DNA from: Actinomycetota bacterium
Lineage (GTDB): Bacteria > Actinomycetota > Aquicultoria > SURF-47
Direction of reading: 5' to 3'
Assembly: GCA_003599235.1 (NCBI GenBank)
Contig: QZJE01000007.1
Location: 16,585 to 80,584, forward strand
DNA length: 64,000 nt
The notes beneath the pieces were generated by a model. It was not told the origin of the DNA and did no database searches. It saw nothing but the letters and a program-made list of their open reading frames with translations. The position numbers were made by a program, and so were the translations under genes. This document shows positions 4,582 to 64,000 of this stretch, one piece after another. Position 1 is the first letter of the stretch. Each line of letters starts with the position of its first letter.

Positions 4582-4728
4582 GTTGCCTCTGGGTCAAAAA
4601 TTCAACAAGTTGCCGTATATCTTTTCCAAGCCGCGGATTTTTCCCAGCGTGAAAAATACCGCTTAACTATTGTTTAATGCCTTCTACCCCCTACCACCTA
4701 CTCCCTACTCCCTGCTATACTATTCCAA

Positions 4729-5247
4729 ATGACAATTTCAAAAGAAGTTAGCAATTTAACAGGTTTTCCGAAACTTCCAAAACCACTAATAAAGCTATTT
4801 TTAAAAGCCCCTTGGCTGGTACCGGTAAGAATCCGCTGGAAAGTGGCCTCTAAGGGAATAGGTCTTTTGATGACAGCCGTAACCGGTAAAGATGATTCAT
4901 TATCTATGTCGTGTAAAGAACTTGGCCTCAGACAAGCTAAGGCACTTAAAGATAGCTTACAAGTTGGCAGTAGCCTTAAAGAAGTAATGCAAGTTATACG
5001 TTTAGCTAACCGCCTCTTTGGAACAAAACATACTTTTAAGATGATTAACCCTACTACTTCTAGAACCTTAGTAAAAAAATGCGCTTGGGCTGGTAGCGAT
5101 ACTTGGGGACAAAAAGCGTGCGCAACCCTGTCTGCTTATGAAATCGGCTTGGCTGAAGGATTAAATGACAAAGTTAAAATCAGATTTATCACTAAAATGG
5201 CTAAAGGGGACTCGGTTTGTCAAGCAGAGTACACCCTAAATCAATAG
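4729..5247 (+). CDS. Hypothetical protein inserted between leuC and leuD
   Basis: 172-aa ORF with coding-like composition and no recognisable motifs. It fills a 750-nt gap in an otherwise compact operon. Real status uncertain. Confidence 0.35.
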   Translation: MTISKEVSNLTGFPKLPKPLIKLFLKAPWLVPVRIRWKVASKGIGLLMTAVTGKDDSLSMSCKELGLRQAKALKDSLQVGSSLKEVMQVIRLANRLFGTKHTFKMINPTTSRTLVKKCAWAGSDTWGQKACATLSAYEIGLAEGLNDKVKIRFITKMAKGDSVCQAEYTLNQ

Positions 5248-5838: not shown

Positions 5839-6833
5839 AGCATAGAGTTACTCTAATCCCTGGAGACGGTATCGGACCAGAGCTATCAGCAGCTACCAAA
5901 TTAGTTGTAGAAGCTACGGGTGTGGATATAGTCTGGGATGAAGTAGCAGCCGGAGAGACAGTTATGGCTAAATATAACACTTCCCTTCCTGACTATGTGC
6001 TCGATTCGATAAAAGAAAATAAAGTAGCCATTAAAGGCCCAATCACCACCCCAATAGGCTCCGGATTTAGAAGTGTTAATGTTGCTTTGCGCAAAGAGCT
6101 TGGCTTGTATGCTTGTTTGCGACCCTCGGTTAGCATGGAGGGAGTTAAAAGCCGCTATCAAAATATAGACCTAGTAATAGTTAGAGAAAATACCGAAGAT
6201 CTTTATGCCGGTAATGAACGGATGATAGATGAAGATACCGCTGAAAGCATCAAGGTCATAACAAGAGGTGCTTCCAAAAAAATCGCCAAGTTCGCATTTG
6301 ACTATGCTAAAACAGAAGGGCGTAGAAAGGTAACCTCTGTCACAAAGGCAAATATTATGAAGTATACCGACGGACTGTTTTATGAGGCTTGCCGCGAAGT
6401 AGCTAAGGGTTATCCTACCATTGAATACGATGAGCACTTAATTGATGCCATGTGTATGCAGCTGGTTTTAAAGCCCGGAGACTACGACGTTATGGTTATG
6501 CCTAATTTATACGGCGATATTTTGTCAGATTTATGTGCCGGCTTAATTGGCGGACTTGGAGTTGCTCCAGGAGCCAATATTGGTGATGAATACGCAGTTT
6601 TTGAACCAGTGCATGGAAGTGCTCCTAAATATGCCGGTCTTAACAAAGCTAACCCCACCGCTATGATTTTATCAGCAGTGCTGATGCTAAAACACTTAGG
6701 CGAGAAAGAAGCCGCAGATAAGTTGCATAAAGCAACGGCTGATGTCATTGCTAAAGGCTCTACCGTTACCTACGACTTAGGCGGATCTTCCGGTACTAGT
6801 GAATTTGCAAAAGCAATTGCCGCTAAGATGTAG
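5835..6833 (+). CDS. leuB: 3-isopropylmalate dehydrogenase / isocitrate-homoisocitrate dehydrogenase family
   Basis: 332 aa with the [10 protein letters not shown] signature of beta-decarboxylating dehydrogenases. The short form is typical of archaeal-type LeuB. Confidence 0.8.
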
Positions 6834-7302
6834 GAAATCCTTTCTTTTCCCAATAGCCTTTTTTGTAATCTGCCACCAACTCAATGACGATTACCCACTT
6901 AACGCTTTTATAAGCATATTTCTCGCTAGCAACTAAACGCAAAGGGCCGCCATGCTCTTTTGCAACCGGCTCACTACCAAACTTATAAGCTAACATAACT
7001 CCATCTGATAAAGTTTCTTGGAGATTGAGGGGCTCCGCATAGCCACTAGGGGCTTGTATGATAATATAGCTGGGATTTTCTTTGATTTTTACCTTGGATA
7101 ATAACTCTTTTAGGGGTATTCCTGTCCAAGTTCCGGAAATCGTTTTTCCTTGCAGACAAACCACTTCGGTTTTTAGATTAGTACTTGGCATTTTTTCTAT
7201 ATCATTTATGGATAACTCAAGAGGTTTTTCTACACATCCAACTATCTTTAGCCGCCAATCTTTAGTATCAATATCCGGTATTTCTTCTACTTGATAAGAC
7301 AT
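6823..7302 (-). CDS. Small molybdopterin-binding oxidoreductase domain protein (sulfite-oxidase/YedY-like Oxidored_molyb domain)
   Basis: 159 aa. [24 protein letters not shown]...HGGPLRLV matches the Mo-cofactor-binding domain of sulfite oxidase/MsrP. It sits downstream of argH and its 3' end overlaps the leuB 3' end by 11 nt (convergent). Confidence 0.6.
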
Positions 7303-7345
7303 ACTAATCAGGTATCCTTAATCTTTGATTATGAAACCCTTGTAC

Positions 7346-8746
7346 TTATCCCTTATCCCTTAAAAGCAATGATGTTGCGAGGCTTATTTGCTTCTTAACC
7401 TGCTTAGGCGAGGTTCCTCCTAGACTGTTGCGGGCAGCAATGACATTTTTAATGGCAATGGCATCGAATAGTTTTTCATCAAAAACAGAGTTTATCTTTT
7501 TGAACTCACTTAATGGCAATTCATGCAAATAAAGACCCTTCTTAACGCATATTTTGACTGCTTGGCCAACAATGCCGTGAGCTTTGCGGAAAGGTATTTT
7601 CTTTCCCACCAGGTAATCAGCTAGATCAGTTGCGTTAGCAAAACTTTTTTGCACTGCTTCCAGCATAGAGGTCGTGTTAAGTTTGATTCCGGATAACATC
7701 TTTGTCATCACTTCCAAGCTAGCCGATATCGTATCTAAACTATCGAAAACGATTTTTTTATCTTCCTGAAGATCGCGATTATATGTAAGTGGTAACCCTT
7801 TTATTATGCCTGATAAAGCTTGATAATTAGCGGCTACTTTAGCACTTTTGCCCCGGATTAGCTCAGCTACATCCGGATTTTGTTTCTGCGGCATAATGCT
7901 GCTGCCGGTGGTAAATGCCTCATCTATTTTAATAAATCCAAACCCGGCAGAAGAAAAAATTACCATCTCTTCGCATAAGCGGCTTAGGTGCAGCATTATT
8001 AAATTAGCCGCATTTAGAAACACAACTAGGTAGTCCCTGTCAGCTACTGCGTCCATGCTGTTTTCTGATATATTTTTAAACCCAAGCTCTTTGGCTAAAA
8101 AATTACGGTCTATATCATATGTGGTTCCAGCCAAGGCTGCTGAGCCCAATATTAATATATCTGCGTGATTATATGCACAATTAAGCCTTTTTTTGTCGCG
8201 CTCTAGCATCCAGAAATAAGCCATTATGTAGTGCGAAAAAAGCACCGGCTGGGCAACTTGTAAGTGAGTATAACCAGGCATTACCACATCAATATTTTTT
8301 TCTGCCAAATTAACTATTGCTTGCTGCATACCTTTAATCAATTTTTTAAGACCGGTAATTTCTTCTTTTATATAGAGACGCATATCGGTTGCTACTTGGT
8401 CATTGCGGCTTCGTCCGGTATGCAGTTTTCCTGCCATAGAACCAATATGGCTTGTTAGGCCCCGCTCGATTGCGCTATGAATATCCTCATCGCTACCAAG
8501 AAACTTAAACGTACCGGCTTTAATTTTTTTGCCAATTTCTTTTAAGCCTTTGATTATTTCATTAGCCTCGGCTCTCTTAATTATTTTTTGGCCGGCTAGC
8601 ATTTTTCCGTAGGCGATTGAGCCGGCAATATCTTGCTTATAAAGCCTAATATCATCAGCTAACGACGAGCTGAATTGCTCAACTAATTTATCTGTTTTTT
8701 TATCAAACCGTCCCTGCCATAATTTCATTTGTTTTTCCTCGCCCAA
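7346..8746 (-). CDS. argH: Argininosuccinate lyase
   Basis: 466 aa with the fumarate-lyase signature GSSIMPQKQNPD. N-terminus is ArgH-like (WQGRFDKKTDKLVEQF). Confidence 0.9.
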   Translation of the reverse strand: MGEEKQMKLWQGRFDKKTDKLVEQFSSSLADDIRLYKQDIAGSIAYGKMLAGQKIIKRAEANEIIKGLKEIGKKIKAGTFKFLGSDEDIHSAIERGLTSHIGSMAGKLHTGRSRNDQVATDMRLYIKEEITGLKKLIKGMQQAIVNLAEKNIDVVMPGYTHLQVAQPVLFSHYIMAYFWMLERDKKRLNCAYNHADILILGSAALAGTTYDIDRNFLAKELGFKNISENSMDAVADRDYLVVFLNAANLIMLHLSRLCEEMVIFSSAGFGFIKIDEAFTTGSSIMPQKQNPDVAELIRGKSAKVAANYQALSGIIKGLPLTYNRDLQEDKKIVFDSLDTISASLEVMTKMLSGIKLNTTSMLEAVQKSFANATDLADYLVGKKIPFRKAHGIVGQAVKICVKKGLYLHELPLSEFKKINSVFDEKLFDAIAIKNVIAARNSLGGTSPKQVKKQISLATSLLLRDKG

Positions 8747-12426: not shown

Positions 12427-12439
12427 AAAACCCTAACCA

Positions 12440-13288
12440 CTAACCCCTAACCACCATGGTGCCAACTCCTTCATCAGTAAAAATCTCCAATAATAGTGCA
12501 TGTTGAATGGTTCCGTTTAATATGTGGCAACGATGAACGCCTGAATCTATGGCTTCTATGCAGCTAAGAAGCTTTGGCAGCATACCACCTTTGAGACGAC
12601 CGTCATCAATTAATTTCTGGCTTTGTTCTATGTTTAGAACAGATAACAAGCTATCTTTTTCGCCTATTTTGCCGTAGATCCCATCTACATCTGTTAGATA
12701 AATCAATTTTTCTGCCTTTATAGCTTCTGCAACCGAAGCTGCTACAGTATCAGCGTTAATGTTGTAAGAATTTCCATCTTGGCCTTGCCCCACCGAGGAG
12801 ATTACCGGTATTTTTCCTTCCTTAATAGTCTTATTAAGCTTTTCTACATCTACACTTTGAACATCGCCTACAAATCCCAAATCCTTGTCATATTGTTTTT
12901 TGTAAGCAACAATAACTTCTCCTGAATAAGCTTGGGCAACATCGCCATGTTTATTAATATTATCTGCTATTCTCTGGCATGCCTGGCCTAAAACTTTGGC
13001 TACTATATCCATTGTGGGCTTATCTGTTAGCCGCAAGCCGTCAACAAACTTAGGCTCAATACCTGCGTTTCGCATTGCCAAACTAATCTCAGGCCCGCCA
13101 CCGTGAACTACTACCGGGTTTAGCCCCACATAGTGCATCAAGGCCAGGTCGTTAACTATCGATTGTTTTAGTTTTTCTAAAACCATCGCTTTACCGCCAT
13201 ATTTGATAACAACCGTCTTGCCTTTATATTCCTTAATATAAGGCAAGGCTTGCATCAATATTTTGGCTTTAGCTATTGCGTTCTCCAT
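12440..13288 (-). CDS. argB: Acetylglutamate kinase
   Basis: 282 aa, amino-acid-kinase family (VIKYGGKAM, HGGGP). Confidence 0.9.
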   Translation of the reverse strand: MENAIAKAKILMQALPYIKEYKGKTVVIKYGGKAMVLEKLKQSIVNDLALMHYVGLNPVVVHGGGPEISLAMRNAGIEPKFVDGLRLTDKPTMDIVAKVLGQACQRIADNINKHGDVAQAYSGEVIVAYKKQYDKDLGFVGDVQSVDVEKLNKTIKEGKIPVISSVGQGQDGNSYNINADTVAASVAEAIKAEKLIYLTDVDGIYGKIGEKDSLLSVLNIEQSQKLIDDGRLKGGMLPKLLSCIEAIDSGVHRCHILNGTIQHALLLEIFTDEGVGTMVVRG

Positions 13289-13335
13289 ACTTTATGACTC
13301 CCTACTCACCACTCACTACTTACGACTTACGGTTT
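13289..13335 (-). repeat. Purine-rich tandem-heptamer leader element (minus-strand CCGTAAGTCGTAAGTAGTGAGTGGTGAGTAGGGAGTC) between argJ and argB; copy 1 of a near-identical pair
   Basis: A 32-nt core differs at only two C/T positions from the element at 48855..48893. It is built of GTRAGTNG repeats and ends in the argB RBS GGGAG. Confidence 0.55.
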
Positions 13336-14577
13336 TTATGTATGATACTCCGCATTTATTTTTACATAGTCATAGCTTAAATCGGCTGTCCAAACAGTTG
13401 TTTCGGCTTTTTTAAGCTTCAGGTCAATAGTCATTTTAAGCTCATCTCTTTTCATATACTCTTTCAGTTCTTTGCTTGCGAACTTAACCGGCAGCCCGTT
13501 TTTTACCAGCTCAATTTCGCCTAGGCTAAGACCTAATTTAAGAGGATCGATATCTACTCCACTGTAGCCAATTGCAGCTACAATGCGTCCCCAGTTAGCA
13601 TCCTGACCAAAGAACGCCGTTTTTATTAAAAGTGAATTAGCGATAGATTTAGCAATAGCCTTTGCATCTTCTTCGGTTTGAGCCCCTTTAACCTTGACGG
13701 TAATAAACTTAGTAGCTCCTTCGGCATCCTTTACAATTTTTTTAGCTAAGGCTGAACATACTTTTAAAACCGCCTTGTATACCAGCTCTTCATTCTTATC
13801 ATCAATACTGACTTTATGATTTCCGGCGGTACCGTTAGCTAATAAAACACACATGTCGTTGGTAGAGGTATCGCCGTCGACGGTAATCGAATTAAAAGTA
13901 AGATTGGCTGCCCTCTCTATCACCTTGCGCAGCAGCTTCCGATTAGCCCGCAGGTCGGTAACAATAAAAGCCAGCATAGTCGCCTGCCTGCCGGCAGGCA
14001 CGGCGGTAGGCATCTCTTGGGGAACATGCATATCGGGGGCAATCATGCCGCTGCCTTTAGCAATGCCGGATACCGTAATCAATTGGTTATCAATCTCAAA
14101 CTGAACCGAGGCTTCTTTTGGAACCGTGTCTGTAGTCATGATAGCCTCAGCCACTTCGTATCCCTTATTAACCCCTAAACTATGAACAGCTTCATTTATG
14201 GCTGGTTCAATTTTGGCAATCGGCAGTTTTTCCCCAATTATGCCGGTTGAAGCTACCATAACACTTTTTTCTTCGATTCCTAATTTTTTAGCAGTAACTG
14301 AGGCCATTTTATAGGCATCAGCCAGACCTTTTTTACCGGTAGCCGAGTTGGCGTTTCCGCTGTTAACGATAATAGCTTGAGGCATCGAAGCCATTTGATG
14401 CTCTATCGAAACCTTAATTGGGGCTGCTGCCATTTTGTTTGTTGTATAAACTGCAGCCGACTTGGCAGGCATCTCTGAGTAAATAAGGCCTAAGTCTTTG
14501 CCTTTACTCTTAATGCCGGACTCAACTCCGGCAAACTTAAATCCTTTTGGCGGTATAAAACGATCAAAGTACTCCAA
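13336..14577 (-). CDS. argJ: Bifunctional glutamate N-acetyltransferase / ornithine acetyltransferase
   Basis: 413 aa, ArgJ family with the autoproteolytic ATML site (ATMLAFIVTD). Apparent TTG start preceded by an AGGGAGG RBS. Confidence 0.85.
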   Translation of the reverse strand: MEYFDRFIPPKGFKFAGVESGIKSKGKDLGLIYSEMPAKSAAVYTTNKMAAAPIKVSIEHQMASMPQAIIVNSGNANSATGKKGLADAYKMASVTAKKLGIEEKSVMVASTGIIGEKLPIAKIEPAINEAVHSLGVNKGYEVAEAIMTTDTVPKEASVQFEIDNQLITVSGIAKGSGMIAPDMHVPQEMPTAVPAGRQATMLAFIVTDLRANRKLLRKVIERAANLTFNSITVDGDTSTNDMCVLLANGTAGNHKVSIDDKNEELVYKAVLKVCSALAKKIVKDAEGATKFITVKVKGAQTEEDAKAIAKSIANSLLIKTAFFGQDANWGRIVAAIGYSGVDIDPLKLGLSLGEIELVKNGLPVKFASKELKEYMKRDELKMTIDLKLKKAETTVWTADLSYDYVKINAEYHT

Positions 14578-14624
14578 TTTTTTCCTCCCTTATCCCTTAA
14601 CACTTATCCCTCATCCCTGAAGCA

Positions 14625-15593
14625 CTAAGGGTACACCCCTAGTGCTTCTAGTCCTTCCCATTCATTTAAACCAAACATAATGTTCATGTTCTGTATTGCC
14701 TGGCCGGCAGCCCCTTTAACCAGGTTATCTATAACACTCATAATAAAAACCTTGCCGCCTTTCTCATCTACCTCTAGACCAATATGGCAATAGTTAGAAC
14801 CTAAAACCGCTTTTAATTCAGGATATTGCTCATCCAAGATATTTACAAAATAGGCGTCCTGATAAAAACTTTTATAATGGTCAACTAATTCCTCTTTTGA
14901 ATAATCCTTGGCTAAGTCTGCCACAACAGTACTGTATATTCCCCGGCTTACTGGTATTAGGTGAGGAGTAAAAGTTAATTTGGTATCATCTTCTGAAAGC
15001 TTGCTTAATTCTTGCTCCATCTCTGCAATATGTTGATGAACGTTGCCAACTTTGTAAGCACTGACATTAGCTTGATACTTGGCAAAAGAATACTCAGCTG
15101 ATGCTCCGGCACCACTTAATCCGCTCAAAGAATTGACTACAATGTTGCCGGCCATCTGATATTTTAGAGCCGGCGCCAATGCCAATATTATACTAGTAGG
15201 GTAACACCCGGGGTTAGCAATTAAGCTAGCCTGCTCTATCTTGTCCTTATTTAACTCGCATAAACCATAAACCGCCTCATTATTATCTATTCGGTAATCT
15301 TGCGACAAATCGATTACTTTGAGGCCGCCCTCTAAAAGTTCAGGCACAAACTTCTTAGAAACTCCGTGAGGCAATGCCGTAAATACTACATCGCACTTAG
15401 CTTTGATTTTGGTTGCGTCATAGCCCTCAAAAATAATATCAGCAGCAATATTGGGATATAACTCCTGAATATGCTTATTTGCATAGCATTTTGAGGTAGC
15501 ACTAAGAACTTCTACTTGTTTATGGTGCTTAAGTAAGCGCACAATTTCCGCTCCGGAATATCCTGATGCACCCACCACTGCCGCTCTTATCAT
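14625..15593 (-). CDS. argC: N-acetyl-gamma-glutamyl-phosphate reductase
   Basis: ArgC family (GASGYSG NAD-binding motif, catalytic Cys region). The longest ORF starts at 15626. The start at 15593 (MIRAAVVGASGYSG) has a GGGAG RBS 5 nt upstream and places the ARG-box-like palindrome in the promoter rather than in coding sequence. Confidence 0.85.
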   Translation of the reverse strand: MIRAAVVGASGYSGAEIVRLLKHHKQVEVLSATSKCYANKHIQELYPNIAADIIFEGYDATKIKAKCDVVFTALPHGVSKKFVPELLEGGLKVIDLSQDYRIDNNEAVYGLCELNKDKIEQASLIANPGCYPTSIILALAPALKYQMAGNIVVNSLSGLSGAGASAEYSFAKYQANVSAYKVGNVHQHIAEMEQELSKLSEDDTKLTFTPHLIPVSRGIYSTVVADLAKDYSKEELVDHYKSFYQDAYFVNILDEQYPELKAVLGSNYCHIGLEVDEKGGKVFIMSVIDNLVKGAAGQAIQNMNIMFGLNEWEGLEALGVYP

Positions 15594-15609
15594 ATTAACT
15601 CCCGTTTTA

Positions 15610-15633
15610 TGTATAATTTTAAACAATTATACA
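15610..15633 (-). promoter_or_regulatory. ARG-box-like operator (9-bp inverted repeat TGTATAATT-N6-AATTATACA) overlapping a TATAAT -10-like hexamer upstream of argC
   Basis: Perfect 9/9 inverted repeat about 10 nt upstream of the argC RBS, in the AT-rich intergenic region after pheT. It resembles the AT-rich palindromic ArgR/AhrC boxes (TGAAT-N-ATTCA type). Confidence 0.45.
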
Positions 15634-15676
15634 CTATTATCAGATAAAGTAAAGAAAATATTAAATATTTTAAGAA

Positions 15677-18058
15677 TTAACGGATTTCAGCGCTTACTTC
15701 TTTTTCTAAAGCCTTTTTAACTTTCTTGTGCTGAAGCAGAGCTTCTTCCATTTTGAGAGTGCGCTCATAGTTTTGATAATATAGGCTAAAGGCTAAGCTT
15801 TTTTTATTATCAGGGATGCCTTTGCCTGTATATAGATCAAATAAGCGTACAGTTTTTAAAAGTTCTTGGCCGGCTTCTTTTATCGCCCGCATAATATCTT
15901 TGTTAGCGACTTCTTTATTTACTAAAATAGCAACATCTAAATCAATTCCCGGATACTTAGGCACTCCCACAAAGGCTACTTCTTGGCTGGAGCTTTTCAT
16001 TAAAGAAGCCATATCTACCTCAGCATAATAAACAGCTTTGCTCAGCTCGAAAACATCAAGCACTTTTTGGGTTAATTCTCCGATATGCCCTGCCTTATCA
16101 GAACCAACCACAATTGAGGCAGAGCGCCCCTGTTTATATATCTGGTAATCCTTCGGCGAAAAATCGTAACCCGATACCTTTAAATCGTCAAATATCAACT
16201 CTAAAATTCCTTTTAAATCATAGAAATCAAAAGATAGTTTGTCTTGATGCCATTCTTTGTCTTGCCAACTGCCGCCGATAATTATGCCTAGTTTACCTGG
16301 CTCTTTAGGAAGTTTGGAGTTAGGCAAAAAGACTTTTCCGAGCTCAAATAACTTAACGTTATCTTGGCCTCTGTTAACATTGAACATAAAAGTGCTAAGT
16401 AAACCCGGAAGAAGAGTTGTTCTTAGAACTCCGTGATCTTCGGATAAAGGATTAGCAATAGCCACTACGTCTTGGTCTACGGGCAGTTTGGCTATCAAAT
16501 CCTTGGACTGAAAACTATAGGTTATGGCTTCCATCAAACCAGTTGATACCAGCAATTGCTTTACTCTTGATTCAATCTTCTGCTCTCTTGTCAATTCGCC
16601 GTGCTTGCCGCTGGATTCTGGTAAAGTAGATTCAATATTGTTTAATCCGTATAGGCGGGCCACTTCTTCTATTAAATCTATTTCCCGCTCCAAGTCCGGC
16701 CGAAACGTTGGCACCTTAACATTAAGACTGCTTTTGTCTTTTGATATATTAAGGTCTAAGCTTTCTAGTATTTTTTCTATTTTGCTATTTTTTATATCAG
16801 TTCCCAGCACTTGATTAGTTTTATCAACGCTTAAATTAATAGTTACCGGATTTATTTTTTTAGGATAGATATCAACTGTTCCTTTAAGAACTTTTCCTCC
16901 AGCAATATCGGCCATTAATTGAGCTGCCCTGTCAGCAGCAATTGCGCACCCGTTAGGATCTATGCCGCGCTCAAAACGCATTGAAGACTCTGAAATAAGT
17001 CCTAAGTTTCTGGAAGTACGGCTGATATTTTTAGGATCAAAATAAGCTGATTCCAAAAGCACTATTTTTGTTTCAGTGCTTACCTCAGTTGTAGCCCCAC
17101 CCATTACCCCGGCTAAAGCAATTGGGCCAGAAGAATCGGTTATCAATAGATTGTTTTCATTTAAAGAACGCTCTATGTCGTCTAGGGTAGTAATTTTTTC
17201 ACCCTTATTAGCCCTGCGTACAACTATCTTGCCATCTTTAACCAGCTCATAATCAAAGGCATGCAGGGGCTGGCAGTACTCAAAGAGCACGTAGTTGGTA
17301 ATGTCAACAATGTTATTTATTGGCCTCACCCCAGCTGCAATTAAACGCCTTTTCATCCAATCAGGAGATTGACCTATTTTTACATCAGTAATCACTTTTG
17401 CAGCATACCTGGGACACAACTCTGGATTTTCTATCTTCACCGAAACAAGCTCACTAACCTCTTTACTCTCAACTCTATAGTCTATTTCCGGTATCTTATA
17501 AGGCCTTCCCAGAATGGCTCCAATTTCTCTAGCCATGCCTATCATCCCTAAACAATCCGGCCGGTTTGGGGTAATCTCTAACTCAATTACAACATCATCT
17601 AGCTGCATGGCTTTCGCTAAAGGCTGTCCTACTTTTAAATCCGCAGGCAGTATCATTAATCCGGATGCATCTTCGCCAATTTGCAATTCGGTTTTTGAAC
17701 AAAGCATACCGTTGGATTCTACTCCTCTCAAAGAAGCCTTCTTTATCTTAAAACCGCCAGGAAGAACAGCCCCTACTAAAGCTAAAGGAACTTTGTCACC
17801 TTCAGCCATATTTCTAGCTCCACAAACGATATCCAGTGTTTGTTTGCCTGTTGTTACCTCGCAAATAGTTAGCTTGTCAGCATTGGGATGGGGTTTAATT
17901 TTTAGTATCTGGCTGACGATTACTCTATCTAAACCCTTGGCTGGTTCATCGATACCTTCGACTGCTGTGCCTGTCAAATCAAGCTTATCAGCTAACTCTT
18001 CGGGAGATAAATCGTCTATCTTTACATATTCATTTAACCAATTTAGTGAAACTCTCAT
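15677..18058 (-). CDS. pheT: Phenylalanine--tRNA ligase beta subunit
   Basis: 793 aa with N-terminal tRNA-binding, B3/B4, B5 and C-terminal anticodon-binding domain order typical of PheT. Confidence 0.9.
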   Translation of the reverse strand: MRVSLNWLNEYVKIDDLSPEELADKLDLTGTAVEGIDEPAKGLDRVIVSQILKIKPHPNADKLTICEVTTGKQTLDIVCGARNMAEGDKVPLALVGAVLPGGFKIKKASLRGVESNGMLCSKTELQIGEDASGLMILPADLKVGQPLAKAMQLDDVVIELEITPNRPDCLGMIGMAREIGAILGRPYKIPEIDYRVESKEVSELVSVKIENPELCPRYAAKVITDVKIGQSPDWMKRRLIAAGVRPINNIVDITNYVLFEYCQPLHAFDYELVKDGKIVVRRANKGEKITTLDDIERSLNENNLLITDSSGPIALAGVMGGATTEVSTETKIVLLESAYFDPKNISRTSRNLGLISESSMRFERGIDPNGCAIAADRAAQLMADIAGGKVLKGTVDIYPKKINPVTINLSVDKTNQVLGTDIKNSKIEKILESLDLNISKDKSSLNVKVPTFRPDLEREIDLIEEVARLYGLNNIESTLPESSGKHGELTREQKIESRVKQLLVSTGLMEAITYSFQSKDLIAKLPVDQDVVAIANPLSEDHGVLRTTLLPGLLSTFMFNVNRGQDNVKLFELGKVFLPNSKLPKEPGKLGIIIGGSWQDKEWHQDKLSFDFYDLKGILELIFDDLKVSGYDFSPKDYQIYKQGRSASIVVGSDKAGHIGELTQKVLDVFELSKAVYYAEVDMASLMKSSSQEVAFVGVPKYPGIDLDVAILVNKEVANKDIMRAIKEAGQELLKTVRLFDLYTGKGIPDNKKSLAFSLYYQNYERTLKMEEALLQHKKVKKALEKEVSAEIR

Positions 18059-18118
18059 AGTAAAAATCCAATCAACGCCAAGTACCAGGGACTAAGGACT
18101 AAGTACCAAGTACCGTTT

Positions 18119-19159
18119 TTAGAATTGCTCCAAAAATCTCTGGTCGTTATCATAAAGCATCCTTATATCATCTAAGCCATATTTAAGCACTGCAACGCGT
18201 TCTACCCCCATACCAAAAGCAAAGCCGGTATACATATCAGAGTCTATCCCTCCATATTTTAAAACATTAGGGTCAACCATGCCGCAACCAAGTATTTCCA
18301 GCCAGCCGGTACCGCTACAGAGACGACAACCGCTGCCTTTGCATAGGCCGCAAGATACGTCTACCTCGGCACTAGGCTCAGTAAAAGGAAAATAATGCGG
18401 ACGCATTCTAATAGCCCTGTCTTCTCCAAATAGCTCTTTTACAAAAATTTCTAAGGTGCCCCGCAGGTCGCCAAAAGTTATTTTTTTATCAATAGCCAGT
18501 CCTTCTATCTGGTGAAACATGGGTACATGCGATGGATCAGCAACATCACGCCTGTAAGCTTTACCGGGAGCCAGTATATAAATAGGCGGTTTTTGTTTTT
18601 CCATTACCCGTATCTGTACAGGAGAGGTATGTGTTCTAAGAAGCACAGGCTCACCTTCCCTGTCAGGGTCGGTTAAACCTCTAATGTAGAAAGTGTCTTG
18701 TAAAGAACGAGCCGGATGGTCTTCAGGCGTGTTTAAGGCAGTGAAGTTGTAGAAATCAGTTTCTACCTCCGGACCTTCGGCTACCCTATATCCTAGCCCA
18801 AGAAATATCTGAATAGCTTCATCAATTATCTGGGTTACCAGGTGCTTTTTGCCATAATTTGGCTTTTTGCCTGGTAAACTCACATCTAATGCTTCTATTG
18901 CAGGCGGTTTAGCTTTAAGGCTTTTGAGCTTATCGTTGATAGCTGCTTCCAGCTTATTCTTTAACTCATTAGCCAGCTTACCCACAGCCGGACGCTCTTT
19001 AGGGTCTAGGTCACTTAAACCCCTTAATATCGAGGTAATCTCACCCTTACGGCCAAGATATTTTACCCTTATCTGCTCTATTTGTTCTTTATCAACTGCC
19101 TTATCCACAGCTTTTTCTGCTTGCCTATAGAGATTGTTTAATTTATCAACAGCCGGCAT
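18119..19159 (-). CDS. pheS: Phenylalanine--tRNA ligase alpha subunit
   Basis: 346 aa, class II aaRS core with PheS motifs (FPFTEPSAEVDV, GWLEILGCGMV). Confidence 0.9.
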   Translation of the reverse strand: MPAVDKLNNLYRQAEKAVDKAVDKEQIEQIRVKYLGRKGEITSILRGLSDLDPKERPAVGKLANELKNKLEAAINDKLKSLKAKPPAIEALDVSLPGKKPNYGKKHLVTQIIDEAIQIFLGLGYRVAEGPEVETDFYNFTALNTPEDHPARSLQDTFYIRGLTDPDREGEPVLLRTHTSPVQIRVMEKQKPPIYILAPGKAYRRDVADPSHVPMFHQIEGLAIDKKITFGDLRGTLEIFVKELFGEDRAIRMRPHYFPFTEPSAEVDVSCGLCKGSGCRLCSGTGWLEILGCGMVDPNVLKYGGIDSDMYTGFAFGMGVERVAVLKYGLDDIRMLYDNDQRFLEQF

Positions 19160-19242
19160 ATAACCTCGTTGTTCTAACTACTAGTTTTCTAAAAGAATAG
19201 CCGAACAAGCAGGTATTGTCTATTATTAAAGCGTTAGATAAT

Positions 19243-22200
19243 TTACAGAATAACTAATCTTGCTTTTGCAACTCTTAACTGCTTATTTCCAGCTCTGTCC
19301 GTAGCATACATAAAATATTCATAACTTCCTTTTCTTAATTTAGCTTTAGTCTTGATAATCCTTCTAACACCAATTTTTTGGCATCCAGTTTTTAACGTCT
19401 TGATTTGCTTTTTACCTTTCTTGATAATTATTTTCGTATAAAGTAATCCTCCGGTGAAAGCATCTCTTATCGTAGCCTTAAACTTAACAACCTTGCCTCT
19501 TCTTGCTCTTACATTGTATGCCTTAACCCTGGGCTTACTATTATCAACTACTACAAATAACTTTGTCACTTCTTCATCACCCATTGCATCCATGGCTTTA
19601 GCTGTAATAATATGCGGACCATTTCTTACTTTCCTTGTGTTCCAAATTATAGGATTTCTAAATCCAAAAGCCTTTTCATGGTTATCAAGAAATAACAAAA
19701 TGGTTTTGGGGACAAAGCCATCTAAACTTTCAATATTTATTTTAAAGCGGCCCCCAATATAGGAATTTGAAAGCCCTTTGAACTTTATTCTTGGTAATTT
19801 TTTAACATCCGTTTGCACCTCATTGCTATATGTACTTGCGTTACCAGCATTATCAACTGCCTTTACCCTAAAACTATAACTTTTCTTTTCCATCAGATCA
19901 GCAAATGTATAATTGTTCATATATATGGGCGTATTTACCTGCTGCCAATTGGTGTCGCCAATATTATATTCAAGTAAGTAATAGCTCATCCCAGATAAAC
20001 CTATCTGATCTTGTGATAATAACCAATTTAGATTAATAAAATAATCCCTAGTATGTTTAGGTATTTCTTGCAATAAAGGTGCACTTGGAGATGTCTTATC
20101 AATCTTTAATTCAATTTGTTTGTCTTGCTCTAGATTTCCAGCTTTATCTTGCGAACGATAAGCTAGGTTAGCAATTCCCTCTCGGTTGATACTAAATGCC
20201 GTATCGTAGACCTGCCAAGTAGCCCCGTTATCAAGGCTATACTCTGTCTTTTGTATTCCTAACCCATCAGCATTATCTTGAGCGCTTAAAGATACATTAA
20301 CATCTGAGGTATACCATCCATTATCTCCTTTGGCGCCTGAAATAATTATAGAAGTAACAGGAGAAGTTGTATCGGTAATCATAATCTTTGCCTCTAAGCT
20401 GCTCTCTAAATTACCTGTTTTGGCAACAACTTTAATGTTATGTAACCCCAATTTTTGTGACCCTAAATCATAACTAAATGATTGATATCCATTTACCGAA
20501 ACACCATTTGATATCACTTGGTTATTATCAATAATAACTTGAATATTTGCGCTAGATTGCTGGCTGGAAAAAACATCGTAGCTAAGCTTTACAGCATCGG
20601 CTGGGCAATATAACGGCTTGTCTGTTTTAATCGACGTTAGTGAAATACCTGTAATATCAAAATACTGGGTTCCACTATCCAAAACTACTCCGTTTTTGAC
20701 TATCCAATAACATAGTTTATGAATACCTAGTGTATTTGTATCCAGCTCTAAATCATAACTAAAGTCATTTTTGCCAGCGTTTAATTGCCTATTGGTATCC
20801 ATAACTTTTGTTTCTTTGCCGGTAGGATCATATATTGAAGCAATAAACTTGCCATCGAAAGCTGATTCACAATCAGCTTTGAAGTTTAGCTTTAACGTAT
20901 CTTGCGGATTATAAACACTCTTATCCAACGAAGAATCATTTATTGTTAAGTCGAGACTGTCGACATCAATGAAGATTTGCCCACTTTCACCATCTAAACT
21001 GTAATCGACGGGATAGGTTCCGCCCTTAAGTTCCTGCGGCAATTGGAAGTTAAAGGAAGTATCGCCAGAAATCGTCAGGTCTTTAATATAATTAGGTGCA
21101 TTAACTTTTAAAGTGCCTGGTTTGCTTGATTTTACTTCTATATTTACAGTGTCTCCAGGATTATAAACGCTTTTATCAGCAATCAAGCTTAAAGTATTGT
21201 TCTCTTGCCTTGCGTAAAGACTGTTTAGATATAATGCCCTGCCGGTACTTGCATATACTCCATAGGAGATTTTCTCCTCACCCTTATTAAGTGGAATATC
21301 TAAAGTAACTTGCTTGCTTCCATTAAGAATAAAGTTATCTGTTTTAGCTTCATTGTCACCGGATGATGCTTTCGCATAAACTTCAATTTCAGGCAACGTG
21401 CTTTCGTTAATAATGTCTAGCGTAATAAATGCATGGTCGCCTACCATATATACATCTTTATTAAGAGTAGCTTCTGTATTTATTTTGATACCCTTGATTT
21501 GGTAATCAATAGTTCTTTGCTCTTGACCTGCTAAATTATAAATTGCAGGATAACTTTTTTCCTCTAGATCGATAGGTGTGTTAAAAATAACCTGAATTTC
21601 TTTTTCTTCTCCAGGTTGAATATATTCGTACTTTTTATCGGTAAAAATACCGGTTGAATCGAAATCTAATTCTGCTTGAGCTTCGATGTTGCCAGTATTT
21701 TTAACCTTAAAATTAAAGGTAGCTTGTTCGCCAGTAGTAAAGCTAAGGTTTTGAGGCTCCTGGGTTATAGTAAAATGTGCAGGCTTAATTTCGACTGGGA
21801 TACTAGTGTTAGCTAAAACCGTACCATCAACTCCAATGGCTTCAACTAAAATATCATGCCTGCCCGGTGTTGCCGCCGCTGTTCGTAAGGCTGAATCGGT
21901 ATTTTTGCTTTCGCCGGCAGCAACTTCTACCTCGATTTCTGTAGAATCGAAAGTAGCGCCAGTCTTTAACTTCCCACAAAATGAACCAAATCCGCCATTT
22001 GTTAGCTTAGTAGTGAATGTGATTTTGCCATCTGGTGTTGGAGTTAGATTAAAACTCGTATTTAAACTAATATCGTTTTCTTTAAGCACCTTTACTGAGC
22101 TACTACCGGAAAATAGCGATGATTGATAGGCTAAATAATAAGTACCTGCATTTTGGGGACTAAACGTAACTGTACTATCATATACATTTCCTTTCGGAAC

Positions 22201-25200
22201 ATAAACGCTTTTGATTACAGATTCATTATTGAGACTAAAAGCAACGTCAAAAGAGCTGTCTATTAAGCCTGAGTTGGTAATACTAAAAGGTATCTCAATA
22301 ATTTTTCCTTGGCCATAGTACTCTTTTTGATTAAGTGCAATGTCGTCTTTTTCTCCAAAAGACACAGTTTTTGTTTGAGTTAAAGTAACATCTCCTGTTA
22401 GTTCTGCTTTAAACTCCGTATTCTTATTAATAGCAACCGAATAATCGACAATTTTTTGCTCGCCTGGCTGCAGAGTAATATTTTCTTGCTTTAGAATTCC
22501 ATTGTTATCTGAAAAAGCGAGGTCGCCACTAAACTCAATATCAGCAGCATTTTTAATAGTAGCGGTTAAGACAAAGGGGCTTATCCCGACCATCGAAGGA
22601 GCTTCAAAAGTTAACTCTGCTTTAGGCTGGATTATTTTTACCGACTCGTCGACAGTAGCATCAACAAACGTAGCTTTAAGATTAAAACTATCAGCTGCAG
22701 TAGTTGTGCAAGAAAAAGGCTTACTTTCGCCAGATGATAGATAAGAAATATTTTCTGTATAAATTACTTCCTGATTTTTATATATATTTAGCACTTTGTT
22801 TTCCAGTGGCAACTCTGCACTATTCTTTAATTGACCAGTAATAGTTATTGTTTCATTTGGCTTAAAGGCTTTTTTGTCAGCATTTAGAGATAACTCTGTT
22901 TTGCCTGGAAAGATATAGAAAGGATAGATACTCTTGGCAATTGTTTGACCGTTGCTGGATTTCAAAGTCTCTTGTAGATACAACTTACCTGTTGCGTCTA
23001 TTGAGCCTATTGCTTCACTGATATTTGATGTTTCATTAGGCGCTAGACTGATAGGCATTTGTTTTTGCCAGAATGTTTCTTTTGGTGATCCAGGATTAAA
23101 CAAATATACGCTAGAAGTCCCATTTTCATCTTCTTGCCAGACAACATTATTGCCCGAAACACTAGGAGAATATTGGTCTGAAGAGTCAGAAGTAACTCTG
23201 AACTCCGTTCTTGTTTCTAGATCATAACCGTAAACATCTTTATTTCCGTTTCGATTATCAGTCCAAGCAATCATATTCCCGTCTATAGTTGGTTCGGTTT
23301 GGTCGGAAGCATTACTGGTAATTCGCTGTTCTTTTTGAGTTGTAATACCGTATACATAAATATCCCAATTGCCATTTCTATTATCTTGATAAACGATTGT
23401 ATCCCCTGATATTGAAGGTAAAAGCTGCTCAAAGCTATCACTAGTTAAATTGCGCCTTGTGTTGGTAATAGTATTGAGTAAATAAATATCATCATTAAAA
23501 CTCCAAACAATATTGTTATTATCTATAGATGGAGAAAGGCCTAATCCAATCCCCCTCAACTCTCCTGTTAACATGTTGAATGTAGTAATTTCACCAAAAA
23601 AATCTGCCCAAACAACCGTATCTTCATAAATATCTGGATCTATACAAGGAGATTGGTAGGAATTACTTAGTTCCCTCATTTTATTGGTTATTAGGTCATA
23701 TGATATAATTTCAAGCCCGCCACCATTAGTTCCCCCTGACCAGACCATCATATCGCCCGATATTGCCAGTTTATTGTCACCTAAGAGTGGTTCCATACAG
23801 ATACCGGTATCTATTCTTCGTTTCTCTTTCATTTGCAAATCATAAACACACAAGCTATTAGATAAATCTGAAGACTCAGCCCAAATTGCCCTATTGTTGT
23901 CTACGACAGGCATTACTTGCTCTGAAACACTGGTTCCCATAGATGCATTGCTATTAACTTGGCTTGCTGTATTATCGTCAATGTCATACATGAAAATATC
24001 AGCATTGCCGTTTCTGTAGTCTTCCCATACTAGTATTTCGCCTTGTACATCTGGTGATATCTGCATCGCCCCTGAGGAATCTATTCTTTGGGTTGTTTTA
24101 GTCTCAATATCATAAACACATACTTTCCATCCATATGGCATATCCTCAGTTGAACAATCTGTCCAAACAACCTTATCATCCGACAAACAAGGAGTTGAGG
24201 GTTCATAAAATGATAAATGCTGTACTTCTGCAATCCTTTCTTCCGTTCCTGAAAGAAAGTCATACAAATACAAATAGTGCTTGTTATCTTCCGTTCTAAA
24301 CCACATAGCTTTATTATTTGTAATCGCTAATTTCTCATAGTTAGCATAACCACATGAGTAATCACTGCTTATTTGTGATGCAGATTTTGACTCTAAATCG
24401 TACATAACTACGCTGGGTTTTGAGGTTCGATTATCGACAAAAAGTAATCTATTTCCAGAGATAGCTGGTTTATTTTGGTTATTATAATAATCAGGCCATA
24501 ACACTTCCTCTGTTTTAGTAACTAAATCAAAAATGCATACTTTGTTTACAAAGCCCATGGATCTGATACCTACTACTCGATTACCTGAAATTACCGCATC
24601 GTTATAGCTGTAAGGCAGCTTGTATTGACCTTTATTAGCCAAATCATAGACATATATAGAATTGTTTTCATTCCACAAAATGTTATTTTCAAAGATCTGG
24701 ATATCTGAAATAAAATCACTGGTAGATGCAGCTACTTTACTTTCCTCTCTACTTCCAAAATCATACAAATAAATCTCATCCCTGCTACTGCGATTATCTA
24801 CCCAAACCACTTTGTTCTGCCATACTGCAGGGTCTCTTTGTTTTGCTAGTTGTGGGCCACAATCCAGTTTTGTTTTTGGGCCTGCCATTATTCCTAATCC
24901 GTCTTTGAATACTTGTAAGCTTAAAGATCCATTGTCAACTTGGTTGGAACCATTAATTATGTTGGTTAGACTGTTAGCTATTTGGCCATGTAAATAGGCA
25001 GTTTTATCTGTCCTAACAATCATCTCAGCATTTGCACCATCTATAAATATCTTTTCGTAAATCTTAGCTTTCTCGCCAGTAGAAAGATTAGTAAAATTTG
25101 CCTTTAAATAATAATCCCCTCTAACAACCTCTTGTGGAATACTAAAATTGATACTTTGCTCTTCTCCAGCTTTGACACTACTAGCTCCTGACTGGATGTT

Positions 25201-46517: not shown

Positions 46518-46537
46518 ATAGTTAAAAGGGCAGGCAT
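46518..46537 (-). terminator. Rho-independent terminator hairpin after rfbD (GGGCAGG-loop-CCTGCCC followed by a T-tract on the minus strand), part of a set of mutually exclusive GC hairpins
   Basis: Minus-strand RNA reads GGGCAGGUUGAUGCCUGCCC then UUUUAAC. Upstream are the overlapping alternative hairpins CCCCTACAGTAGGGG (46535..46549) and GGGCGAGA..TCTCGCCC (46547..46566). A -10-like TAAAAT follows before wzm. Confidence 0.5.
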
Positions 46538-46582
46538 CAACCTGCCCCTACAGTAGGGGCGAGATACTTCTCGCCCTAAACT

Positions 46583-48854: not shown

Positions 48855-48893
48855 TTCTTCTCCTACTTACCACTTACTACTTACGACTTACGC
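48855..48893 (-). repeat. Purine-rich tandem-heptamer leader element (minus-strand GCGTAAGTCGTAAGTAGTAAGTGGTAAGTAGGAGAAG) between rfbA and rfbC; copy 2
   Basis: Shares CGTAAGTCGTAAGTAGTRAGTGGTRAGTAGG with the argJ/argB junction element. It lies directly between the rfbA stop and the rfbC start. Confidence 0.55.
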
Positions 48894-51815: not shown

Positions 51816-51822
51816 ACATCAG

Positions 51823-52422
51823 ATGTCAGACTTCAGTCGTCAGGAAACATCAAACAAACGTCATTGCGAGGAGGCCAATAGCCGACGTGGCAATCTCAGA
51901 CATAAGGCAGTCTTCCTAGACCGCGATAATACCATTATCGAAGACGAAGAAGGATATCTCTCTAATCCTAACAAAGTAAAACTGCTTCCAGGAGCAGCAG
52001 GCGCCATTAAGAAACTAAATGGAGCTGGGTTTAAGGTGATAATCGTAAGCAATCAGTCTGGTATTGGACGCGGATTAATTACAGAGGAACAACTTGGTCA
52101 AGTTAATCAAAAGATGCTCGAACTTTTAGCTGAAGAAGGTGCTAAGATAGATGCTATATACTATTGCCCTCACCATCCCGAAGCCGATATAGAGAAATAC
52201 CGAATGATATGTCCAGACAGAAAGCCAGCTCCCGGAATGCTCATTAAAGCCGCCGTAGAACATAATATCGACCTCAGTAAGAGCTATTGTGTTGGTGATA
52301 GTGAACGAGACATCCAAGCAGGCAAAAACGCCGGTTGCTCTACCTTAATGATTAGCGAGGAATTAGATCTAAAAAAAGCAGTAGAAATTATTTTGAATAA
52401 CTCTTTAGAATCTTATCGATAA
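51823..52422 (+). CDS. gmhB: D-glycero-D-manno-heptose 1,7-bisphosphate phosphatase (HAD, GmhB type)
   Basis: HAD motif I AVFLDRDNTII, then VSNQSGIGRG and CPHHPE (Zn-binding GmhB signature). The longest ORF starts at 51676 and overlaps gmhA in another frame. The ATG at 51823, just after the gmhA stop, is the likely start. Confidence 0.75.
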   Translation: MSDFSRQETSNKRHCEEANSRRGNLRHKAVFLDRDNTIIEDEEGYLSNPNKVKLLPGAAGAIKKLNGAGFKVIIVSNQSGIGRGLITEEQLGQVNQKMLELLAEEGAKIDAIYYCPHHPEADIEKYRMICPDRKPAPGMLIKAAVEHNIDLSKSYCVGDSERDIQAGKNAGCSTLMISEELDLKKAVEIILNNSLESYR

Positions 52423-63466: not shown

Positions 63467-64000
63467 AAACCAACTGTTTTTTTGACAATGTAATTGGGAC
63501 GCTGTTTTACTTCTTCATATATGAGTCCAATATATTCGCTAACGATACCAAGCATTACAAAAAGGAAACCAAATAAGAGAAGAACAATCGTCATCAGGGT
63601 TCCATATCCAGGGAAAGGTACCCCGTAAAGTATGAATTGGATAACAATGAATATCAGGACTATAAAAGCCAAAATGGACAGGCTAATTCCAAAAAAGGTA
63701 ATCAATCTAAGAGGCAAAAGCGAATAAGCCAGCATTCCTTTGATTGCCAATTCCAACACCTTTAAAGTATGAGCCTTGGATTCACCGGCAAATCTAGGCG
63801 TACGCTCGAACTCAACTCCCGCTGATTTAAACCCCACCCAGTAAAACATCCCTCTTAGGAAACGATTACGTTCCTTCATTGCGTTAATAGTTTGATACAC
63901 TTTCTTATCTACCAGTCGGAAATCGCTTACATTTTTGGGAAAGGAGCCAGCTGTCATTTTATTTATCAGCCAGTAGAATATTTGGGAGTTCATCTTTCTT
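63463..64000 (-). CDS. Polyprenol-phosphate glycosyltransferase (GT2, GtrB/DPM-synthase-like), C-terminal part; N-terminus beyond the window end
   Basis: The C-terminal portion has the typical GtrB ending (conserved region FRLVDKKV, RFLRGM, then two C-terminal TM helices). The ORF is still open at position 64000. Confidence 0.6.
   Translation of the reverse strand, partial: RKMNSQIFYWLINKMTAGSFPKNVSDFRLVDKKVYQTINAMKERNRFLRGMFYWVGFKSAGVEFERTPRFAGESKAHTLKVLELAIKGMLAYSLLPLRLITFFGISLSILAFIVLIFIVIQFILYGVPFPGYGTLMTIVLLLFGFLFVMLGIVSEYIGLIYEEVKQRPNYIVKKTVGL

Follow-up and report, generated by a model that had tools for sequence, protein, structure and literature searches.

The 64,000-nucleotide stretch of contig QZJE01000007.1 analysed here (the window), which comes from an uncultured Actinomycetota bacterium, carries eight short tandem arrays, each made of three to six degenerate heptamers and 25–42 nt long, and every one of them sits at a junction within an operon (arg, pheST, rml, gmhAB or leu). 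The unit is 7 nt in all of them, and this is the feature that unifies the sites. We put at roughly 0.55 the probability that these arrays are heptanucleotide simple repeats, born of slippage, filtered by the reading frame and co-opted incidentally as parts of the junctions where they lie, rather than a dedicated regulatory signal. Such a signal is nonetheless possible, and an earlier note on this DNA, made from the letters alone, had argued for one, listing five related repeat elements and proposing that they act in translational coupling or RNA stability. The five elements are where that note placed them; three more, at 13296-13330 (argJ/argB), 48857-48891 (rmlA/rmlC) and 51816-51843 (gmhA/gmhB), had been missed. 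The window is a new host lineage for a repeat kind that is known and still unexplained, resembling the short tandemly repeated repetitive (STRR) heptanucleotides of cyanobacteria and the TAACTGA repeats of other bacteria. All counts of arrays given below refer to this one 64-kb window and to about 68 kb from relatives, unless a further contig is named.

The repeats are real and lie far beyond chance, a conclusion that is statistically robust. In a scan of the window at lags of 3–12 nt with a threshold of 17 matches in 21 positions, lag 7 alone scores; at 12 matches in 14 there are eight lag-7 hits, representing seven distinct sites (two hits overlap at 4690-4717), against 0.35 expected, and the other lags from 4 to 12 give 0–3 runs, which is close to expectation. 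A second test took the 17 same-direction spacers, each extended by the last 20 nt of the gene before it: 12 matches in 14 at lag 7 are attained by six of the 17, against a mean of 0.02 (maximum 1 in 500) for dinucleotide shuffles, and lags 4–6 and 8–11 yield 0–1. The claim that the spacers are not random sequence is thus upheld by the spacer test and by the lag-7 excess of the window, and the units given with that claim need correction; the repeats had been read as GGTTAG (six nucleotides) and AGGGATAAG (nine), and Tandem Repeats Finder returns period 7 throughout. The program reports this period at seven sites, including 4684-4713, 7345-7362, 12429-12454, 14586-14618 and 18078-18114, and adds a 14-nt period for the rmlA/rmlC array. 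In 1.4 Mb of loci from other bacteria, lag-7 runs occur at 0.46 per 64 kb, about 16-fold below the window; lag 7 is the commonest lag there, too, among those that are not multiples of 3. Within the window it is the short intra-operon junctions that hold arrays; the long spacers (83–173 nt) hold none and carry promoter-like or hairpin sequences. The arrays are short and degenerate, as chance low-complexity spacers or assembly artefacts might be, and yet we give that explanation next to no credence: the shuffle tests and the specificity for lag 7 refute it, the same phenomenon appears in independent NCBI, ENA, JGI and Logan assemblies, and the loci L085 and L086, which come from independent assemblies, have an identical array in common.

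Where do the arrays lie with respect to the genes? Seven of the eight overlap the upstream stop codon or begin 0–6 nt after it, and anything between 0 and 43 nt separates the arrays from the downstream start, so that a positional bias directly 5' of start codons, as had been proposed, gives way to one at upstream stops. Two arrays provide the stop itself, an overlap that the earlier note had correctly seen. Array S1 (7338..7362, minus strand), between argH and an open reading frame (ORF) with a molybdopterin domain, reads TAAGGGA TAAGGGA TAAGTAC AAGG, with period 7 and 100% matches in Tandem Repeats Finder; it overlaps the last four to five argH codons and the TAA stop, encoding LRDKG plus that stop, and gives ArgH a C-terminal extension of four residues relative to three relatives. 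Array S2 (12427..12454, minus strand), between argB and argD, reads GTGGTTA GGGGTTA GTGGTTA GGGTTTT; it encodes the ArgB tail VVRG and the TAG stop right after the conserved ...FTDEGVGTM and reaches as far as the argD ATG. Three further minus-strand arrays begin after a stop codon or end in a ribosome-binding site, or both. S3, between argJ and argB (13296..13330; GTAAGTC GTAAGTA GTGAGTG GTGAGTA GGGAGTC), begins 5 nt past the argJ stop, and its final unit is the Shine–Dalgarno sequence of argB (GGGAG). S4, between argC and argJ (14584..14618; AGGGATG AGGGATA AGTGTTA AGGGATA AGGGAGG), begins 6 nt past the argC stop, which stands in 7-nt register with the TGA and TAA of the units, and its final unit is the argJ Shine–Dalgarno sequence (GGGAGG). 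S6, between rmlA and rmlC (48857..48891; GTAAGTC GTAAGTA GTAAGTG GTAAGTA GGAGAAG), likewise ends in the rmlC Shine–Dalgarno sequence (AGGAG). In all three, the unit that serves as the next gene's Shine–Dalgarno sequence is also the most divergent one of its array, and the array ends 2–7 nt from the start codon; S1 and S5 end 14–35 nt upstream of theirs. S5 (18073..18114, minus strand; GGTACTT GGTACTT AGTCCTT AGTCCCT GGTACTT GGCGTTG) begins 4 nt past the pheS stop, in a gene order that is pheS then pheT and not the reverse, as the earlier note had it.

The remaining two arrays are on the plus strand. S8, between gmhA and gmhB (51816..51843; ACATCAG ATGTCAG ACTTCAG TCGTCAG), begins at the very next base past the gmhA stop (TAG), the stop and the array sharing one 7-nt register, and the only canonical in-frame gmhB start is the ATG at 51823, inside its second unit. 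The orientation in which S8 lies has no stop codon in any frame and, because the GmhB profile begins only at protein residue 27, the array encodes what should be a dispensable N-terminus. S7, between leuC and the ORF at 4729-5247 (4684..4718), has on the mRNA strand the units CTACCCC CTACCAC CTACTCC CTACTCC CTGCTAT, which are the GGGAGTA type in reverse complement. It is pyrimidine-rich on the strand of both genes, confirming the inverted copy that had been reported after leuC; lying 102 nt past the leuC stop and 10 nt ahead of the ORF start, it is the sole exception in the window in both orientation and position. As read from the sequence, the arrays evidently supply stop codons (argB, argH), Shine–Dalgarno sequences (argJ, argB, rmlC) and a start codon (gmhB), and they are confined to intra-operon junctions and to ORF ends that are not conserved.

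Orientation was counted over a set of 19 arrays comprising those of the window, those of the relatives and those of one unrelated contig, L089, described below. Of these, 11 have every sense-strand frame closed by a stop codon, and six have every antisense frame so closed. Where G and C counts differ by at least 5, the G-rich strand is the sense strand in 14 arrays and is not in one (S7). Arrays without any sense-strand stop are S8 and two from relatives, and the sole array that enters a coding start, S8 again, does so in a stop-free orientation. In the window, all G-rich strands are the minus strand, as an effect of replication might produce; this explanation was rejected on the evidence of locus L087, in which two arrays 800 nt apart flip along with the gene whose stop precedes them, so that orientation tracks the gene and not the DNA strand. 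No promoter-like or terminator-like site was found inside the arrays of the window. Contingency repeats of the phase-variation kind do not fit either: the units are degenerate, the operons serve housekeeping biosynthesis, promoter-like sites do not overlap the arrays, and near-identical assemblies show no indels in a comparison that covers one clear array.

Nor do the arrays behave as a family of structured RNAs. At seven of the eight sites the fold z-scores range from −1.2 to +1.2, no better than shuffles, and RNA structure as a general property of the arrays was therefore rejected. Array S1 is the sole structured site (z −3.3 for the region 7303-7362, minus strand), with a predicted pairing to the start region of the molybdopterin-domain ORF (GAUAAGG...AUGUCUUAUC). 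Rfam covariance models at gathering score match nothing in the entire window. G-quadruplexes were considered and set aside, being possible only in S4 among the arrays of the window (with one loop of 11 nt) and only at L085 11212-11235 and L087 19868-19891 among the relatives; motifs of four G3 tracts with loops of up to 12 nt number just two in the window, namely S4 and a site at 63,818-63,852 that is not an array. A HutP-like site (UAG-N4 three times) fits, by eye, only S2 and the array at L083 3503-3529 and was discarded, the units of the other arrays having no common triplet. The inverted array S7 raises a more specific idea, which builds on a pairing test suggested in the earlier note: that on the leu mRNA it pairs in trans with the purine-rich arg and rml arrays and so couples their expression. 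There is an 11-nt perfect complement between S7 (ACTCCCTACTC) and S3 (GAGTAGGGAGT), and duplex energies run from −17 to −37 kcal/mol; however, the z-scores against mononucleotide shuffles of S7 are −0.9 to −2.7, shuffles equal or beat the energies for every target, nothing comparable was seen in the relatives, and the window has a single copy of this kind. Trans pairing is accordingly very improbable, and the predicted affinity appears to be mostly an effect of C-rich against G-rich composition.

The units themselves fall into at least four families in the window: AGGGATA/GGGGTTA/GGGAGTA, GTRAGTN, GGTACTT and NNNTCAG. The consensus units of S1 and S4 are the same, those of S3 and S6 differ by one base, and the S2 consensus and the reverse complement of S7 come within one to two mismatches of the S1, S4, S3 and S6 units. 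The G-rich units (AGGGATA, GGGGTTA, GTRAGTA and the reverse complement of CTACTCC) are thus 0–2 mismatches apart and may fairly be called related, as had been claimed of all the elements; the GGTACTT units of S5 and the NNNTCAG units of S8 are unrelated to them. A 30-mer with 28 identical positions and the same succession of variant units is common to S3 and S6, which lie 35 kb apart at unrelated sites with unrelated flanks. Within arrays, adjacent units differ on average by 1.76 mismatches and non-adjacent units by 2.32 (permutation p 0.03), which is a signature of stepwise local duplication.

Comparison with related arg loci (ArgJ 54–69% identical; from NCBI, ENA, JGI and Logan assemblies) reveals stable gene order and fluid junctions. 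The relatives retain the synteny argC-J-B-D-F-R-G-H and bear heptamer arrays of their own, with units that differ from those of the window and often at other junctions. Between argC and argJ, for example, the window has an AGGGATA array, L081 an AGCAGAT array plus an inverted copy, and L082 a GGTAGCT array, and in L083, L085 and L087 the genes overlap or are separated by 10 nt; between argJ and argB, the GTRAGTN array of the window corresponds to an AGGGTAT/CGGGTTT array in L085, a GC-rich hairpin pair in L081 and gene overlap in L082 and L083. No sequence conservation was found at orthologous junctions among these relatives, where a plain overlap, a different array or a GC-rich hairpin takes the place of the window's array, and by the earlier note's own measure this tells against its proposed signal. 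What survives of that proposal is the lineage: a habit of carrying heptamer arrays is, as far as these sequences indicate, common to the whole clade, and the last unit is a Shine–Dalgarno sequence in three cases; nothing is conserved in sequence. The relatives also repeat the placements seen in the window. In L083, (GGGGTTA)3 provides the stop codon of a peptidase U32 gene, and 45 nt after this array, at 3570-3601, (CGATGAA)4 covers the start codon and first nine codons of the following peptidase U32 gene, with ATG in all three frames. TCAG-type arrays lie right after stops in L083 and L087, and NACTGAN arrays lie just 5' of start codons (L083 1715-1846, L087 19648-19885). The first of these regions is a 132-nt spacer with a TCAG-type array, two GC hairpins and an inverted CTGA-type array, in which pairing between the two arrays is predicted (z −2.4); its layout is like that of a miniature inverted-repeat element. 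No indels separate the members of two near-identical assembly pairs (99.76% and 99.93%), the compared stretches including one clear array.

How, then, might such arrays come about? In the reading that we favour, they would arise and grow in place through slipped-strand duplication of 7-nt (sometimes 14-nt) units, a propensity that would be raised in this lineage, and the seed may be a heptamer that bears a stop codon or a stop-plus-Shine–Dalgarno module. Selection would act as a filter only: an array whose sense strand bears stops would be tolerated at or after the end of an ORF, and one in stop-free orientation may enter a dispensable ORF start. Expansion could be nearly neutral because closure of the upstream ORF would stay with the first copy and the ribosome-binding site with the last, and the arrays would end as unstructured linkers of 13–60 nt that supply stops, Shine–Dalgarno sequences and a start codon. 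Although the slippage origin, the seeding from a stop-plus-Shine–Dalgarno heptamer and the near-neutrality are what we infer, several lines of observation support the reading: the exclusive period of 7, the high density, the similarity of adjacent units and the lack of conservation; the replacement of variable protein ends by array-coded ones in ArgB, ArgH and GmhB; an orientation that follows the reading-frame filter (14 to 1, with S8 stop-free); the lack of structure, of an Rfam family and of promoter- or terminator-like sites in the arrays; and the fact that the same logic has been described for TAACTGA repeats. Several points weigh on the other side. Arrays hug the stop even in longer spacers (S1 and S5; L083 1715; L087 2840 and 19648; and L089, where the next ORF is over 200 nt away), a placement that simple tolerance does not predict. 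The 30-mer of S3 and S6, with its variants in the same order, is not easily given by independent slippage; this reading accounts neither for the preference for 7 nt nor for the inverted, start-proximal S7; copy number does not differ between near-identical assemblies, which is weak evidence given that one clear array is covered; and the census spans one 64-kb window and about 68 kb of relatives.

Could the arrays instead be selected? They may be cis-acting mRNA elements in which an all-frame stop is joined to an unstructured, purine-rich and partly Shine–Dalgarno-like platform, which would hold terminating ribosomes or bind a protein (the protein S1, a cold-shock protein or CsrA) and so set the translation of the next cistron. 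We regard this as a tentative alternative, clearly less probable than slippage with a filter. The sense-strand bias of 14 to 1, the anchoring at stop codons, the all-frame stops (11 of 19 sense, six antisense), the Shine–Dalgarno sequence within the last unit of S3, S4 and S6, and the unstructured nature of the arrays all suit it, although a pure tolerance filter predicts most of the orientation and stop statistics as well, and S8 and the two relatives' arrays have no sense-strand stop. The existence of at least four unrelated unit families makes a single binding partner unlikely, and GTAAGT, GGTACTT and TCAG units are not Shine–Dalgarno-like. Evidence from relatives cuts both ways: the habit is clade-wide, and the argC/argJ and argJ/argB junctions have been re-occupied by different arrays, but orthologous junctions are unconserved and many are without any array. 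The pairing predicted between array S1 and the start region of the ORF that follows (z −3.3) would also fit a selected element, and the same proposal has been made for the TAACTGA repeats and for the heptamer repeats of Nostoc. An insertion process is, in our estimation, improbable. Here a small process, mobile or templated, that targets ORF 3' ends would have left the arrays as its footprints or brought them as its cargo, and they would be comparable to the very small dispersed repeats in Nostoc heptamer arrays or to miniature elements with heptamer arrays at their ends. Such a process might leave a common 30-mer at junctions as unrelated and as distant (35 kb) as those of S3 and S6, and also the inverted array pairs around hairpins in relatives (those of L083 1715-1846 folding with the arrays paired). 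The window arrays, however, have no target duplications, terminal inverted repeats or shared flanks; a search of the window with a REP-associated transposase-like fragment from L083 found no transposase; and the similarity of adjacent units suits growth in place.

Sequences from beyond the clade bear on this last possibility. The 28-mer common to S3 and S6 was used to scan a collection of 241 million metagenome records, and three contigs were found (L089, L090 and L091). L089 has 61% G+C and encodes a TonB-dependent receptor and a LysR regulator, from which we take it to belong to an unrelated Gram-negative bacterium. It has GTRAGTN arrays at 1415-1450 and 8413-8446: one, identical to S3 at 33 of 35 positions, closes a hydrolase ORF with its stop codon, and the TGA of the LysR gene falls into the 7-nt register of the other. 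That an array so close to S3 overlaps a stop codon in so distant a host may speak for insertion, but the match was drawn from 241 million records, and a few convergent matches would be expected if GTRAGTN were as common in them as in viral contigs. There, (GTRAGTN)4 occurs in 62 contigs, where far fewer than one is expected; this excess has itself been counted in favour of insertion, yet it also makes GTRAGTN arrays a widespread type, so the near-identity of S3 and the L089 array can be convergence. Among 55 non-redundant arrays from the viral contigs, 71% lie at the end of an open sense-strand frame of at least 100 codons, against 31% for antisense frames and 18% for random windows, with 24 sense-only and two antisense-only cases; GC-rich contigs inflate this statistic, since any long spurious frame is ended there by an all-frame stop, and in contigs below 55% G+C the counts are 13 and 7 of 22 (sense and antisense). 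We therefore treat the viral evidence for a location at ORF ends as suggestive only. The other two contigs, L090 (1-1471) and L091 (1-1088), both from metagenome Ga0209302, are GC-rich (56–65%), coding-like and probably eukaryotic, with many interruptions by tandem repeats of GGTTAG, GGCTAG, GGGTAG, GGGTGC and GTAAGTA. Each insertion starts after ...CCTG|GT; around several of them about 25 nt of flanking sequence is directly duplicated, the duplications of L090 being a further point for an insertion process. The insertions look like tandem-repeat introns, with GT...AG ends, or like insertion footprints.

A broader proposition would be that stop-anchored heptamer arrays are a selected, cross-phylum class of intercistronic element, or the footprint of a process that adds 7-nt repeats at ORF 3' ends. 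We hold it to be doubtful. Units of the form stop-N-stop do recur, with TAAGTAG and TGAGTAG in the window, in the unrelated Gram-negative contig and in the 62 viral contigs, and TAACTGA in Beggiatoaceae, and two such units close all three frames within 14 nt. If the element is indeed selected across phyla, arrays after stops would be a universal backstop and a platform for ribosome hand-over between cistrons.

Among described repeats, the closest parallel is the TAACTGA repeat of marine Beggiatoaceae (giant sulfur bacteria), known also from some Cyanobacteria and Bacteroidetes (MacGregor 2015, PMC4679880). These repeats consist of two to six tandem heptamers, often split by related 7-mers, and are nearly all intergenic; they have one preferred orientation, whose forward direction has stops in three frames, 13 sets overlap upstream stop codons, reverse copies occur only at ORF edges, and they have no predicted RNA structure and no established function (PMC4679880). 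The window arrays share the preferred orientation, the three-frame stops and the occasional overlap with an upstream stop; the relatives' NACTGAN arrays 5' of starts are a further likeness, and S8 corresponds to the reverse (TCAG) orientation. The differences are that one unit dominates the TAACTGA system, in which related heptamers are rare, whereas the window has at least four unit families and no TAACTGA array; that TAACTGA repeats are described as start-anchored and as standing in for the Shine–Dalgarno sequence, a pattern that S2 follows, whereas the window arrays are in general stop-anchored and usually have one; and that the host phylum is another. A TAACTGA-type array (ATACTGA AAACTGA AGACTGA TAACTGA) also occurs in L005 20092-20112, from a Sedimenticolaceae bin, that is, in another sulfur-oxidising gammaproteobacterial lineage. 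In the summary that PMC4679880 gives of Mrazek, Guo and Shah 2007, prokaryotic repeats with units of 5–11 nt are most often heptanucleotides, with a sporadic distribution that includes Actinobacteria, and slippage was proposed for them; the lag-7 excess in our 1.4 Mb from other bacteria agrees with that summary. As summarised there, those repeats are longer than expected for perfect repeats, unlike the window arrays, which are short and imperfect and are detected mainly through their shared period and positions.

STRRs, the short tandemly repeated repetitive heptanucleotides of cyanobacteria, reportedly go back to Mazel et al. in 1990. Their definition comes from heterocystous cyanobacteria, and their arrays are often longer. 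Like STRRs and the heptamer repeats near start codons in Nostoc PCC 7120 (bioRxiv 10.1101/2022.06.06.494920), the window arrays are tandem heptanucleotides of several unit families, dispersed in non-coding DNA near gene ends or starts. They have the 7-nt head-to-tail unit of an STRR and, in a 64-kb sample, many dispersed copies in several families; the host is not cyanobacterial, and the arrays, unlike STRRs, are of three to six degenerate units inside biosynthetic operons of a non-cyanobacterial bin. The window ArgJ is 100% identical to RJQ33000.1, which belongs to a metagenome bin with the label Actinobacteria; identity falls to 69% at the next-best ArgJ, bins of a similar kind are the closest relatives, and there are no cyanobacterial proteins among the best ArgJ hits; the best ArgB match in species-representative genomes is 49%. 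The same architecture in a distant, uncultured lineage argues for a general process and against a cyanobacterial peculiarity, and this process could be a 7-nt slippage bias combined with a reading-frame filter, or a selected role at cistron boundaries. For annotation, the arrays account for odd C-terminal tails, N-terminal extensions and unexpected spacers in otherwise tightly packed operons.

Hairpin repeats belong to the same landscape. REP elements form hairpins, their GTAG end is conserved, and they have a transposase of their own. Like REP and BIME elements, the heptamer arrays are small repeats that colonise intra-operon spacers directly after stops, and both types coexist in the clade; unlike those hairpins, the arrays are direct repeats without structure. 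An identity with REP or miniature inverted-repeat elements was rejected on the fold z-scores of seven of the eight arrays and the lack of shared flanks between S3 and S6. REP-like GC-rich hairpins starting with GTAGGG(G/C) lie in spacers at 46,520-46,575 of the window (a back-to-back pair) and at L081 2865-2982, L085 13315-13354 and L083 13322-13399. The REP-associated fragment used as a query above is a tyrosine-transposase-like ORF fragment of the IS200/REP-associated kind at L083 5167-5904 (...YCLMPNHLHVLV...), with inverted GTAGGGCGGGTTCCCCGAACACGCCG on both sides.

The window has a G+C content of 39%, and the identities of argC, argJ, argB, argD, argH, the molybdopterin-domain ORF, pheS, pheT, leuC, leuD and leuB are backed by Pfam or by alignment to relatives. 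ORF 4729-5247 (plus strand), which S7 precedes directly, lies between leuC and leuD, encodes 172 residues and has no Shine–Dalgarno sequence; it matches nothing in Pfam, NCBIfam or the PDB, and no minus-strand ORF that could account for the orientation of S7 was found near it. On the minus strand, the order is pheS (18119-19159), pheT, a promoter-like site, argC, argJ, argB, argD, argF, argR, argG, argH and the molybdopterin-domain ORF (6823-7302). Directly upstream of pheS is an ORF of 3,099 residues (19243-28542, minus strand), followed by a 95-residue ORF without a family; it has only faint hits, to MG2 and Big_13 (Ig-like), and its product is probably a giant surface protein. No T-box or other Rfam family was found at gathering thresholds upstream of pheS (19160-19242) or elsewhere in the window. 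The arg promoter-like site lies at 15,626-15,653 on the minus strand, between pheT and argC, and an AT-rich motif 5' of argC is conserved there: the window at 15,600-15,655 (minus strand) reads GATAATAGTGTATAAT, and the relatives read ATATACGATAATAATGTATAAT (L082 about 130-160, L083 8975-9000, L085 8925-8950, L087 8945-8970). The motif overlaps the promoter-like TTTACT-16-TATAAT and is followed in the window by the palindrome TGTATAATT-N6-AATTATACA; together they are a candidate ArgR operator, and argR itself is located within the arg operon, flanked by argF and argG.

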